Shown: positions 47,359-50,409 of the stretch, one piece after another | Layout of the letters: each line of letters begins with the position of its first letter | How positions within the stretch are numbered: the first letter of the stretch is position 1 | NCBI GenBank assembly: GCA_043818675.1 | Contig: JBDRFR010000061.1 | Coordinates: 1 to 56,341, forward strand | Length of the DNA: 56,341 nucleotides | DNA from: Nanobdellota archaeon | GTDB taxonomy: Archaea > Nanobdellota > Nanobdellia > Woesearchaeales > DATDXC01 | Reading direction: 5' to 3' | Notes under the pieces: generated by a model | What the model was told of the DNA's origin: nothing | The model's input: only the letters and a program-made list of their open reading frames with translations | The model's database searches: none | Translations under genes and position numbers: made by a program

Positions 47359-48671
47359 AAAAAAAAGAACTGGAGTTTATACTGCAGGATGGAGAAGGGT
47401 TAAAAATAGAGTTTAAGGAAAGCCTAAACAATATTGATAAGGAGATGGTTGCGTTTGCAAACGGCTCCGGAGGAAAGATATTTTTAGGGGTTAGTGACCA
47501 GGGAAAAATAAAAGGTGTTAATATTAGTAATCATCTAAAATCGCAGATACAGGATACTGCAAATAACTGTGACCCGCCGGTTAAGATAAAACTTGAGCAG
47601 CTGGAGAATATCCTGATAATCAGTGTAGAAGAAGGAATTGATAAGCCTTATAGATGCTCATCCGGATTCTATATCAGGCAAGGGCCAAACTCGCAAAAGC
47701 TGACAAGGGATGAGATCATTAAACTGGTTGTAAAAGCAGGCAAAGTATTTTTTGATGAATTGCAGTGTGAGAAATTCAATTTCAGAAAGGACTTTGATAA
47801 GGCTAAATTTGAACAGTTTCTAAAAATGGCAAAATTATCAAACATCCTTAGCATTGAGCAGGCTTTGATCAATTTAAGCTTGGCAACAAAAGAAAAAAAT
47901 AAGCTGGTAGCCAATAATGCTGGAGCAATGTTATTTGCCAAGGACCTGAATGAGATATACTTCCATACGCTTGTCACATGTGTTAGATTTAAAGGGTCTC
48001 AAATATTGGATCGGAAAGACTATAATAAGGACATTATAAGCAATATTGAAAGCGCTGTCAATTTTGTATTACAATACCTGCAATTGAGATACGAGATTAA
48101 AGGACTGCAAAGAAAAGAACATTATGAGATTCCAGAAGAGGCAGTCAGGGAGGCTGTTGTAAATTCTATTGTCCATAGGGATTATTTTGAAAAAGGCGCG
48201 AATGTGCAGATTAATATATATGATGATAAAATTGAGATAATAAATCCTGGCGGATTAGTTTCGGGTTTACAAACAAAAGACTTCGGCAAGAAAAGCCTGA
48301 GCAGGAATCCTTTGCTCTTATCAATATTAAACAAGGCCGGATTTGTAGAAAAGATTGGAACAGGGATTAGAAGAATAAAGGAATCACTTAAAGATAATAG
48401 ATTAAAGGAGCCAATATTTGACTTTAACGGGGTTTTTTCTATTACCCTCTTAAGGCCTGCCCCCCAGAAAACCCCCCAGAAGGTTTTGACGCGCCTGGAA
48501 AAGAAGATATTGGATGAAATTTCAAAAAATCCTGCAACAACAAGAAGACTGATAGCAAAAAGCCTTCAGATAAGCCCTGAAACAGTAAAAGAATATATAA
48601 AAAAATTAAAGCAATATGGCTCATTAAAAAGAATAGGCCCTGCCAAGGGAGGCTATTGGAAAGTACCATGA
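47355..48671 (+). CDS. AlbA_2 + HATPase_c_4-like + wHTH putative regulator, copy 2
   Basis: The N-terminal roughly 115 aa are nearly identical to copy 1. The middle and C-terminus have diverged. ATGA overlaps on both sides. Confidence 0.8.
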   Translation: MKKKELEFILQDGEGLKIEFKESLNNIDKEMVAFANGSGGKIFLGVSDQGKIKGVNISNHLKSQIQDTANNCDPPVKIKLEQLENILIISVEEGIDKPYRCSSGFYIRQGPNSQKLTRDEIIKLVVKAGKVFFDELQCEKFNFRKDFDKAKFEQFLKMAKLSNILSIEQALINLSLATKEKNKLVANNAGAMLFAKDLNEIYFHTLVTCVRFKGSQILDRKDYNKDIISNIESAVNFVLQYLQLRYEIKGLQRKEHYEIPEEAVREAVVNSIVHRDYFEKGANVQINIYDDKIEIINPGGLVSGLQTKDFGKKSLSRNPLLLSILNKAGFVEKIGTGIRRIKESLKDNRLKEPIFDFNGVFSITLLRPAPQKTPQKVLTRLEKKILDEISKNPATTRRLIAKSLQISPETVKEYIKKLKQYGSLKRIGPAKGGYWKVP

Positions 48672-49486
48672 AAAAAATTATTCTTGTGCTAATAGTTATA
48701 TTGTTTTTGGCAGGGTTTAGAACAAACGACTGGGAATGGGTGCAAGTTGGTGAACTAAAAGCAGGGGACTCATTAATGGATAAAGATGGAAATAAGATTG
48801 AAATAGAATCTATTGAAAAGGTTTTTGTACCAGAAGGTGTTAATGTTTATGATCTGGAAATTAAAGATTATCATTATTATTTTGCTGAGGATGTGCTAGT
48901 GCATAACAGCGGCAAAAAGGTAATTGTTATCGATCCAGGGCATGGAGGAAAGGATCCAGGGGCTGTAAAAGATGATATCATGGAAAAAGACATTAACCTG
49001 ATGATGGCAAAAAAACTTAATGAAAAGCTAAAAGACAGATATATAGTCTATCTTACAAGAGATACTGACATGTACTTAACCATAGATGAAAGGGCTGATA
49101 TTGCAGAATCAAAAAAAGCAGACCTGTTCTTAAGCATACATGGCAATGCTTATCAGATTGACAGCACAATGTCGGGTGTGGAGATATACAAGTATATACG
49201 ATGTTACGGCGATGAGGAAGAGGTATGCACCAAAAATGAAATCGCAGAGATAGAAGATAAGATGATTGAAAAGCTTGTTAAAAGATTCACTGATAAAGGA
49301 TTTAGCATACATAAAGTTGCAGTAGCGCCTTTTTGGGTATTATACTATGCATCGGCAACAGATGACATCCCCTCTCTCTTAATAGAGCTGGGCTTTATTA
49401 CAAATACAGAGGATCTTGCTAAACTGAAGATTGATGCAGGGTACACAGATGCTATAACTGCTGCAATAGATGAATATTTCAGATGA
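48668..49486 (+). CDS. Leader + C-terminal split Hint/intein half + N-acetylmuramoyl-L-alanine amidase (Amidase_3) cargo
   Basis: MKKIILVLIVILFLAGFRTND is followed by WEWVQVGELKAGDSLMDKDGNKIEIESIEKVFVPEGVNVYDLEIKDYHYYFAEDVLVHN|S. The cargo then reads GKKVIVIDPGHGGKDPGAV...EKDINLMMAKKL...YLTRDTD...ADLFLSIHGNA (Amidase_3 Zn-ligand pattern H, E, H). Confidence 0.85.
   Translation: MKKIILVLIVILFLAGFRTNDWEWVQVGELKAGDSLMDKDGNKIEIESIEKVFVPEGVNVYDLEIKDYHYYFAEDVLVHNSGKKVIVIDPGHGGKDPGAVKDDIMEKDINLMMAKKLNEKLKDRYIVYLTRDTDMYLTIDERADIAESKKADLFLSIHGNAYQIDSTMSGVEIYKYIRCYGDEEEVCTKNEIAEIEDKMIEKLVKRFTDKGFSIHKVAVAPFWVLYYASATDDIPSLLIELGFITNTEDLAKLKIDAGYTDAITAAIDEYFR
48731..48907 (+). other. Split Hint/intein C-half IntC2 (59 aa, +1 Ser)
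   Basis: Blocks F and G (VYDLEIKDYHYYFA, LVHN), then AGC Ser at 48908-48910. Confidence 0.8.
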
Positions 49487-50409
49487 AAAAAATAATGATT
49501 GTACTAATGCTTGTAATATTTCTAGCTGCTAATACCAATGCATGGGAATGGGTGCAGATAGGAGAACTGAAACCTGGTGATTCTTTAATGGATAAAGATG
49601 GAAATGAGATTATCATTAATTCTATTGAAGAGGTTAGAGACGCCAATGGAGTAATGGTATACGATCTTGAAATTAAAGATTATCATTATTATTTTGCTGA
49701 GGATGTGTTGGTGCATAATAGTCAGATCGAATCCCCTGTAGATAAATGGAAGCGGCTGATTAGAGAGTATAATGCAATGCCAATTGGATATCCATCTGAT
49801 GCAAAGTTAAATGAAATAAAAGAATATGAAAAAAACACAGCTGAAATACAAGCAATTCTTAAACAATGGAGCGATTCGGTAAAAGCAGAAGTTAATACTC
49901 TTTTGACATCAAGTGGTATACATCCTGGGGGGATGATTGCAGTAAAAAAGGAAGTATACATGGAAGATGGTAAGTATATACCTCCATACGTATTAATTGA
50001 GATTCAGGATGGTGAGTATGAGGTGGCGGGCATTTTATTTGAGTACAAAAGAGATATTCAGCAGCGGCAAATATATTTAAGTATTCCAAAGCAGTGGAAT
50101 GAGCTTAAGCGAATAGCAGAGTCAGCTACTTATTCTTATACCAGTACAACAGACCTAATAAACAGTCATAAATTAATGGGACTAAAAAAGATGACAGAAT
50201 TAAAAACTGAAGTCACTAAATCAGGATACTGTTACTTAAAAATTGTTGATTCATATAGAGAGCCAAATCTTCGGCCGGATGGGCTCCATTATGCAGATGA
50301 GGATGCCTATAATAATTGCAAAGGAAAATTTACACCCATACCGCAACCATCACCGCCAAGATTTAGTTTAATAAACTGGCTTAAAGATATATTTTCAGGT
50401 GAAGCATAG
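49483..50409 (+). CDS. Leader + C-terminal split Hint/intein half + unknown 229-aa cargo
   Basis: MKKIMIVLMLVIFLAANTNA is followed by WEWVQIGELKPGDSLMDKDGNEIIINSIEEVRDANGVMVYDLEIKDYHYYFAEDVLVHN|S, then QIESPVDKWKRLIREYN... I recognise no family for the cargo. Confidence 0.8.
   Translation: MKKIMIVLMLVIFLAANTNAWEWVQIGELKPGDSLMDKDGNEIIINSIEEVRDANGVMVYDLEIKDYHYYFAEDVLVHNSQIESPVDKWKRLIREYNAMPIGYPSDAKLNEIKEYEKNTAEIQAILKQWSDSVKAEVNTLLTSSGIHPGGMIAVKKEVYMEDGKYIPPYVLIEIQDGEYEVAGILFEYKRDIQQRQIYLSIPKQWNELKRIAESATYSYTSTTDLINSHKLMGLKKMTELKTEVTKSGYCYLKIVDSYREPNLRPDGLHYADEDAYNNCKGKFTPIPQPSPPRFSLINWLKDIFSGEA
49543..49719 (+). other. Split Hint/intein C-half IntC3 (59 aa, +1 Ser)
   Basis: Its 3' part is over 90 percent identical at nucleotide level to IntC2. 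LVHN is followed by AGT Ser at 49720-49722. Confidence 0.8.

Follow-up and report, generated by a model that had tools for sequence, protein, structure and literature searches.

Class-1 protein splicing requires a cysteine at the first position of the domain (Cys1), a Thr-x-x-His motif, a terminal His-Asn and a nucleophile at the residue that follows (+1). Naturally split inteins occur in DnaE of cyanobacteria and in gp41, NrdJ, IMPDH and TerL of phage and metagenome origin, and 'fractured genes' were reportedly described by Dassa and colleagues in 2009. The bacterial intein-like (BIL) domains, said to have been described by Amitai and colleagues in 2003, are hosted by secreted proteins of variable type and not by housekeeping enzymes, and splicing is possible for some of them. 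The PT-HINT domain is a contiguous, self-cleaving releasing peptidase located just before the toxin (Zhang et al., 2012; PMC3482391), and archaeal peptidoglycan hydrolases are used against bacteria (2025; PMC12352652). The locus considered here lies in a window, meaning the whole stretch of DNA that was analysed, of 56,341 nt from a Nanobdellota archaeon (GCA_043818675.1, contig JBDRFR010000061.1, positions 1 to 56,341, forward strand) with the GTDB lineage Archaea; Nanobdellota; Nanobdellia; Woesearchaeales; DATDXC01. Two tandem genes in this window, termed cassettes 1 and 2, each encode an export leader and the C-terminal half of a Hint domain followed by unrelated cargoes. On balance they probably supply the C-terminal halves to a naturally split Hint system of the BIL/PT-HINT type, which would be exported and would trans-splice outside the cell to ligate alternative cargoes to alternative platforms.

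Shared heads and unrelated cargoes

Cassette 1 (48668..49486, 272 aa) and cassette 2 (49483..50409, 308 aa) lie back to back on one strand, each starting at its own ATG, and are made up as follows:

48668..48730, + strand: cassette 1 leader MKKIILVLIVILFLAGFRTND, with a Lys-Lys n-region, a 14-residue hydrophobic core and a weak site LAG|F
48731..48910, + strand: 59-aa C-terminal half of the Hint domain in cassette 1 (W...VHN), with the Ser codon of position +1 at 48908..48910 (PT-HINT; local hidden Markov model (HMM) of the C-terminal half, IntC)
48911..49486, + strand: cargo 1, Amidase_3 (N-acetylmuramoyl-L-alanine amidase; Pfam E 4.4e-40)
49483..49542, + strand: cassette 2 leader MKKIMIVLMLVIFLAANTNA, its junction TNA|W being of the cleavage type (rule-based script)
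49543..49722, + strand: 59-aa C-terminal half of the Hint domain in cassette 2, with the Ser codon of position +1 at 49720..49722 (PT-HINT; local IntC HMM)
49723..50409, + strand: cargo 2, an orphan 228-aa domain without a family match

Alignment of the two proteins gave 60/81 identical residues (74%, E = 4e-37) over the head, with no alignment past it. Both heads, of 80-81 aa, have the same order of Sec-type leader, C-terminal Hint/intein half ending in His-Asn and Ser, with VHN then Ser closing each of them. The Pfam family PT-HINT (cut-off 27.7 bits) was matched by residues 22-80 of cassette 1 (profile 73-136/137, E 6.9e-9, 36.5 bits) and residues 22-79 of cassette 2 (profile 74-136/137, E 3.7e-7, 30.9 bits), directly preceding the variable cargo in both cases, the cargo itself beginning right after HN-S. 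The original prediction of two back-to-back genes, each with its own start codon and leader (an ATG and an MKK-hydrophobic leader in both), with unrelated bodies and with a conserved head representing half of a protein-splicing domain (the C-terminal ~64 positions of PT-HINT), is in agreement with these data. Its shared head of about 80 aa also stands, but 'nearly identical' was an overstatement given the level of identity and an IntC dS of ~1.2.

Amidase_3 spans residues 86-267 of cassette 1 (profile 1-172/174), starting 5 residues past the +1 Ser, with relatives in the PDB that include 5EMI, 3NE8 and 4BIN (E down to 2e-19). The GHGG, EKD, SIHGN and ELG motifs, which we take to be the His/Glu/His zinc ligands and the catalytic Glu, align with 5EMI and, judged by profile and conserved motifs, cargo 1 is an intact Amidase_3. 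For cargo 2 there was no credible match in Pfam (sub-threshold noise only), nothing in NCBIfam, PHROGs or PADLOC, no match under E = 0.09 to PDB sequences and zero homologues in a word-indexed search of 5.8 billion proteins, with two alignment-free AlphaFold2 runs giving pLDDT values of 38 and 41. The remote homology and structure prediction originally suggested for this cargo therefore yielded no homologue.

An identical 39-nt tract, GAAATTAAAGATTATCATTATTATTTTGCTGAGGATGTG, is located just 5' of the cargo junction in both cassettes (48857..48895 and 49669..49707). This identity stands against the near-saturated synonymous sites elsewhere in the heads, the chance of it arising from codon usage being ~1e-4 when estimated by hand from the codon table. 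The gene for P0005, a relative at locus L001 in another metagenome, contains most of the tract as well, such that the identity possibly reflects constraint and not recent conversion. The tract may hint at DNA-level swapping of cargoes over evolutionary time.

Complementary halves and their recurrence

Further halves were located by tblastn and an HMM scan of the window using the heads and the tail of a giant open reading frame (ORF), giving totals of three leader-borne C-halves, three N-halves at ORF ends and one contiguous copy. The 'IntN handles' (N-terminal halves) that had been postulated as ligation partners were thus found in the window itself, ending ORFs 38952..45818, 32668..33003 and 33000..33941, the latter two in a second group of genes (module 1, 32644..36915):

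38952..45593, + strand: giant secreted N-extein platform, with a signal peptide, fn3/Big_13 domains and a Cys-rich body
45594..45818, + strand: N-terminal Hint half that closes the giant protein, reading CFLPQTK...VTPYHYVYAKRNR up to the stop codon and carrying Cys1 and the TxxH of block B
32668..33003, + strand: membrane-anchor stub and N-terminal Hint half (IntN 32788..33000; P0165; IntN HMM)
33000..33941, + strand: anchor, ~200-aa body and N-terminal Hint half (IntN 33729..33938; IntN HMM)
33938..36235, + strand: third cassette, with leader 33938..33994 (...ASA|W), C-half 33995..34171, Ser and a 686-aa cargo

The giant ORF (38952..45818) encodes 2,288 aa with a signal peptide MINKELIALTLIWLVILMPITSA|E, and no C-half follows its N-half in any frame. 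Against the Pfam Hint family this N-half scored 26.5 bits (9-90/213, E 5.6e-6), under the 29.7-bit cut-off, so its assignment rests on the local IntN HMM and alignments. All three N-halves in the window stop 4-7 residues past the block-B His, complementary to the W that opens the C-half, and contiguous relatives join block B to W via 3-4 linker residues (...VTPSQRVYLNGEWEPIG... in P0003 and ...VTPDHIFYIEGQWVPIG... in the internal Hint). When the giant N-half and the cassette 1 C-half were concatenated, they gave a full-length alignment to the BIL domain 2LWY (E 6e-12; the best PDB match) and also aligned with the Hint domains 6Y75 and 8W20. By these alignments the N-half and C-half together are one complete Hint domain with no part missing or duplicated. 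The splicing residues are present in all three window pairs as CFLP... (Cys1), TPYH/TPNH and VHN|S. The dN/dS ratio (Nei-Gojobori) was 0.11 between the C-halves of cassettes 1 and 2 (dS ~1.2) and 0.13 between the two module 1 N-halves, other pairs of halves being saturated at synonymous sites. Low dN/dS together with near-saturated synonymous sites marks the halves as old, constrained coding sequence rather than recent debris.

In module 1 the N-half and C-half genes abut by an ATGA overlap with nothing inserted, and the two N-half carriers have hydrophobic anchors of 17-18 residues. The third cassette opens with MKKIISILMIVLLASFASA|W and shares its C-terminal domain with P0005. Its cargo holds the contiguous Hint (34475..34861), with Glu at +1, a residue with which that copy can cleave but not ligate. 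Homologues of the giant protein in Woesearchaeota/Nanoarchaeia (P0152-P0156) have other C-terminal domains directly fused to them (Trypsin_2 in P0152), and only the window copy has a Hint half as its tip. Since the homologues bear different fused tips, this platform normally ends in an effector tip that varies, and the split Hint therefore looks like a means of post-translational tip exchange. Upstream of each large secreted protein in the window is one of two paralogues of 719 and 639 aa (27151..29310 and 37036..38955; E 1e-22), a pairing also seen at L001 and at a further metagenomic locus, L107. Their N-termini (MKKAQVTIFII... and MKRGQITIFII...) resemble archaeal class III (pilin-type) signal peptides.

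Fourteen leaders were examined with a rule-based script scoring the n-region, the uncharged run and the last small-x-small site. All 14 are Sec-like in having K or R in the n-region and 11-22 consecutive residues without charge (13-16 for the three cassettes of the window), and in 13/14 the last small-x-small site is 0-5 residues before W. The leaders are putative cleavable signal peptides of the Sec type, for which a positive n-region, a hydrophobic core of 7-15 residues and small residues at -3 and -1 are expected, cassette 1 being the weak case. Cleavage at TNA|W in cassette 2 or ASA|W in the third cassette would put the C-half exactly at the mature N-terminus, while for most homologues predicted cleavage would leave 2-3 residues (SE, LE, QE or AE) before it. 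The original prediction of these two sites therefore holds for cassette 2 and for the third cassette at 33938, the ASA|W leader lying outside the coordinates first given, but not for cassette 1 (LAG|FRTND). It had also been argued that uncleaved leaders acting as anchors would block Hint complementation; judging from tagged IntC fragments used in engineering this is a weak objection, because a leader left in place would extend IntC at its N-terminus, would depart with the excised intein and need not block complementation.

An exhaustive profile search with the three heads returned 2,047 Hint-containing proteins, 62 of them below 1e-10, and the best 150 were inspected. Among these 150, class A forms, with the leader directly before Trp, are P0005, P0006, P0008, P0017, P0028, P0035, P0038 and P0082, with P0009, P0012 and P0087 as truncated members. 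Class B forms (P0049, P0050, P0077, P0079, P0095, P0097 and P0104, again among the best 150) have the order leader, block B, C-half. Class B is an alternative split of the same domain with block B reading LKVTxEHPF (for example L104 678..1922 and L106 385..2364). As block B sits on the C-side protein, the N-partner of class B would be expected to have none, and the short contigs examined contained no N-partner of this kind.

The split architecture recurs in three other metagenomic loci, with attached parts that again include peptidoglycan hydrolases (SLT and M23), and a scan of metagenomes identified at least 6 loci. At L001/L002 a secreted Thr-rich protein ending ...VTPYHYVYAKRKE* is encoded upstream of P0005 (leader-IntC-Ser, 648 aa), and at L003 P0008 has the order leader-IntC-Ser-SLT (SLT E 8.6e-17). 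L107 encodes, in this order, a homologue (1,037 aa) of window ORF 29303..32524, SLT-IntN (SLT E 1e-18), Peptidase_M23-IntN (E 1.2e-25) and a leader-IntC-Ser protein of 1,018 aa, an order of two N-halves then one C-half that is syntenic with module 1, with ~220 nt of intergenic DNA between the N-half and C-half genes. P0166 and P0168 are additional ORFs stopping at the same point of the N-half and the same ending is seen in L001. At least 8 independent N-half ORFs share this break point. The identity matrices of N- and C-halves change broadly in step between loci, although over four loci only. For the giant N-half the nearest counterpart is the one in L001 (65%); cassettes 1 and 2 have C-halves that are 81% identical to each other and next closest to L001 (71-76%); and L107 is the most distant from the module of the giant gene and cassettes 1 and 2 (module 2) in both halves. 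Such parallel divergence would fit cognate pairs, within the limit of those four loci.

The residue at +1 was compared across the best 150 of the 2,047 profile matches. In 199 contiguous (fused) domains it was Lys in 114 and Ser, Thr or Cys in 19, whereas Ser or Thr occupies it in 15/18 leader-split forms (Fisher p = 2e-11). Among the more distant class B forms Ser is found at +1 in 5/7, with Lys in most of their contiguous neighbours. Charge complementarity of the halves of the DnaE type was considered and rejected, the C-halves having a charge of -8 to -10 and the N-halves 0 to -5, with basic residues found only in the N-half tails (AKRNR and similar).

Proposed mechanism and alternative explanations

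Under the proposed mechanism each cassette would be translated separately and exported via Sec by its own leader, leaving the ~59-aa C-half at, or a few residues from, the mature N-terminus. Outside the cell the C-half would pair with a ~70-aa N-half that ends a separately exported platform, which for cassettes 1 and 2 would most likely be the 2,288-aa giant surface protein, apparently encoded in the same operon. The reconstituted domain would then ligate cargo to platform and discard itself, ligation being predicted because Cys1, Thr-x-x-His, His-Asn and Ser at +1 are all present. One platform could in this way take either a peptidoglycan amidase or the orphan 228-aa domain, and in module 1 two alternative N-parts would be available to one C-part. 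The predicted junction peptides are ...NINDVLYESISELPDCTTTPA-SGK and ...TTTPA-SQIESPVDK, with ligation junctions that would read NINDVLYESISELPDCTTTPASGK for the giant protein and the amidase, ...TTTPASQIESPVDK for the giant protein and cargo 2 and ...ATGNAASQTDL... for the anchor stub and the third cassette. Archaea have no murein and as such Amidase_3, SLT and M23 should act on bacterial walls. That extracellular combinatorial trans-splicing equips membrane anchors or giant surface proteins with hydrolases of the bacterial cell wall is regarded as an evenly balanced proposition.

A number of observations weigh against trans-splicing by these cassettes. The family appears rare, a handful of loci being present among the matches listed, with none among those returned from GTDB representatives or IMG/VR. 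Searching GTDB representative genomes with the head alignment gave only canonical housekeeping inteins (for example GyrB) and no leader-split forms; in an N-half profile search the word index kept the number of proteins returned low. Cassette 1 has no good signal-peptidase site beside W, reading LAGFRTND|W, with its sole AxA-like site (LAG|F) 5 residues upstream of W. Unrelated genes occupy 2.8 kb between the giant N-half and the cassettes, and identity between the two modules is 59-61% for N-halves and 66-69% for C-halves, leaving the pairing ambiguous. The closest contiguous relatives (P0003, P0011, P0015, P0016 and P0019) likewise have Cys1 and HN|S, and since all five share it the Ser at +1 is a trait of the clade and not of splitting, making the contrast with the fused domains phylogenetic in part. 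Two class B forms (P0095 and P0104) and P0082 have Lys at +1 and so cannot ligate. In addition, a catalytic Cys1 outside the cell could be open to oxidation.

Such exceptions at +1 bear on the main rival explanation, in which the halves come together without ligation, either docking non-covalently or catalysing N- or C-terminal cleavage, the usual behaviour of PT-HINT/BIL domains in polymorphic toxins, with the cargo tethered or released rather than welded to the platform. In keeping with this, most of the related fused domains have a Lys at +1 and cleavage only, the contiguous Hint in 33938..36235 has Glu, the three leader-split forms just named have Lys and the family that passes threshold, PT-HINT, is described as a releasing peptidase. 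Cleavage or docking, however, needs no +1 nucleophile, yet of the class A cassettes long enough to include the junction only P0082 (Lys) and the degenerate P0038 (Thr) lack a Ser right after His-Asn, and all N-halves read keep Cys1 and the block-B Thr and His. Association without ligation is therefore considered unlikely, although it is the alternative to be taken most seriously.

The arrangement of a conserved head, a variable tail and tandem copies downstream of a giant secreted protein is that of Rhs/CDI/Maf loci and would suit ordinary orphan cassettes of a polymorphic toxin, the head serving as a patch of DNA homology for recombining cargo onto the main gene and the cassettes having no role as proteins in their own right. 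While the 39-nt block at the 3' end of the heads, identical despite near-saturated synonymous sites, could be such a patch, most of it is shared with P0005 and may be under constraint, and the heads outside it are too diverged (dS ~1.2) for efficient homologous recombination. Moreover the main gene stops mid-domain with no complete Hint or toxin to displace, free-standing N-half carriers with their own anchors exist and recombination needs neither the ATG nor the MKK-hydrophobic leader that each cassette has exactly at the domain break, making this explanation decidedly improbable. It is harder still to credit that the locus is gene debris, in which the HTH (helix-turn-helix) and AlbA_2 genes inserted into an ancestral giant-Hint-amidase gene and split it into non-functional remnants. 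Defence or toxin-antitoxin-type genes are directly upstream of the leader-IntC gene in the window, L103, L001/L002 and L003, and between N-half and C-half in the window and L001, as this would predict. Set against it, at least 8 independent N-half ORFs break off at one and the same point, the halves abut with nothing inserted in module 1 and are separated only by short intergenic DNA in L107, purifying selection acts on reading frames that are all intact, and a leader has been gained precisely at the break in every case. Fusion of the N- and C-half genes by frameshifting or read-through was rejected as it would place the leader inside the Hint fold, and for the giant gene and the cassettes also because they are 2.8 kb apart.

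Genomic setting and comparison with known systems

The remaining genes around the two modules are:

45842..48671, + strand: small HTH protein, then two AlbA_2/HATPase_c_4/winged HTH (wHTH) proteins, between the N-half and the cassettes
50498..51313, + strand: multi-pass membrane protein after the cassettes (27% identity to 36235..36915, E 6e-5)
36235..36915, + strand: multi-pass membrane protein after module 1, paralogue of 50498..51313

ATGA stop/start overlaps link the second AlbA_2 gene to cassette 1 and cassette 1 to cassette 2, and no terminator-like site was found in 45500-51600, such that the region from the giant gene to the cassettes would fit a single operon. A scan for sigma-70 promoters was discarded as not meaningful for an archaeon. 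There is no gene between cassettes 1 and 2 and so no immunity gene after cassette 1, but a membrane ORF follows each cassette group. Neither of these membrane paralogues had a family match in library searches, and they could be immunity-like or an assembly factor. In the first AlbA_2 protein (ORF 46012..47358) an in-frame tandem repeat, (GEKV)x4, at ~47100..47160 lies in the linker before the winged-helix domain and is absent from the second AlbA_2 copy.

A defence or toxin-antitoxin-type gene lies directly upstream of the leader-IntC gene in four independent loci, with its stop overlapping the start in three. These upstream genes are AlbA_2/HATPase_c_4/wHTH in the window (45842..48671) and in L103 (2..208, before P0006), an MNT/HEPN-like pair, PDC-M05A/B, in L001 (2294..3228) and AbiEi/AbiEii in L003 (195..1669), while L107 has two MNT/HEPN-like pairs just upstream of the N-half genes. 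Possibly they are addiction modules that stabilise or move the cassettes. Toxin-antitoxin-like modules are abundant on the contig, with nucleotidyltransferase/HEPN-type pairs also at 6467..7493 and 52902..53694 (NTP_transf_2 with HEPN; a Polbeta-like nucleotidyltransferase with a small ORF).

The host is a Woesearchaeota-like DPANN archaeon. The window MetRS (4101..6152) has 60-65% identity to proteins of Woesearchaeota and Nanoarchaeota metagenome-assembled genomes, the giant protein has its homologues in those groups too, and the presence of GuaA-like and MscS genes marks the window as cellular DNA. A viral origin of the system was considered and is unsupported, as a search of IMG/VR gave zero relatives of the split-Hint family. 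A 421-aa ORF on the - strand (51310..52575) has an acidic, Gly/Ala/Glu-rich C-terminus and its only match, weak and sub-threshold (E 0.007), is to a phage T7 capsid assembly protein.

If the trans-splicing proposal is correct, inteins would do more than rebuild broken housekeeping genes and would shuffle protein modules post-translationally, a protein-level counterpart to the DNA cassette swapping of polymorphic toxins. It would also offer a molecular entry point to the means by which DPANN archaea breach or attack the walls of bacteria, through Amidase_3, SLT and M23 exteins, and a source of compact split inteins (~70 + 59 aa) with Cys1 and Ser at +1 evolved for work after secretion, which would be useful for ligation at cell surfaces. 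The two modules of the window might be partly orthogonal intein sets. A full-text literature search found no naturally split, secreted, many-partner Hint, BIL or PT-HINT system, although the 2019 survey of archaeal polymorphic toxins (Makarova et al.) was not covered and could hold one.

Compared with the archaeal hydrolases used against bacteria, the locus likewise encodes a secreted murein hydrolase in an archaeon (Amidase_3, with SLT and M23 in related loci), but here the hydrolases are exteins of a split Hint, whereas inteins and Hint domains have 0 occurrences in that report (PMC12352652). It resembles PT-HINT toxin systems in having a giant secreted protein, C-terminal effectors that vary, tandem cassettes sharing a conserved head and a possible recombination patch. 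Unlike them, the primary gene ends mid-domain, without a complete pre-toxin domain and toxin, the cassettes are complete exported genes with their own start codon and export signal rather than orphan cassettes, the +1 residue is Ser in place of the usual Lys and, in contrast to the polymorphic toxins, cargo 1 is a cell-wall enzyme harmless to an archaeon. The likeness to Rhs/CDI orphan cassettes in the original prediction thus holds for the layout but is less apt for the mechanism, the primary gene having no complete Hint and toxin with which to recombine. Neither trans-splicing nor a split Hint is mentioned in the description of PT-HINT (PMC3482391).

The locus is similar to the BIL domains in that its best solved relative is 2LWY and its host proteins are exported and variable. 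To our knowledge, however, BIL domains are all contiguous and bacterial, whereas those described here are split, leader-bearing and archaeal (DPANN). As in split inteins, the Hint domain is present as two polypeptides with Cys1, TxxH, His-Asn and a +1 nucleophile, and unrelated genes may intervene between them. The break falls right after block B, ~25-30 residues upstream of that in Npu DnaE, a position for which we know of no precedent among natural split inteins. Known split inteins rebuild one essential cytoplasmic enzyme from one N- and one C-partner; here the exteins are modules unrelated to one another and exported, each partner bearing its own export signal, and one N-half stands to two C-halves in one module and two N-halves to one C-half in the other.

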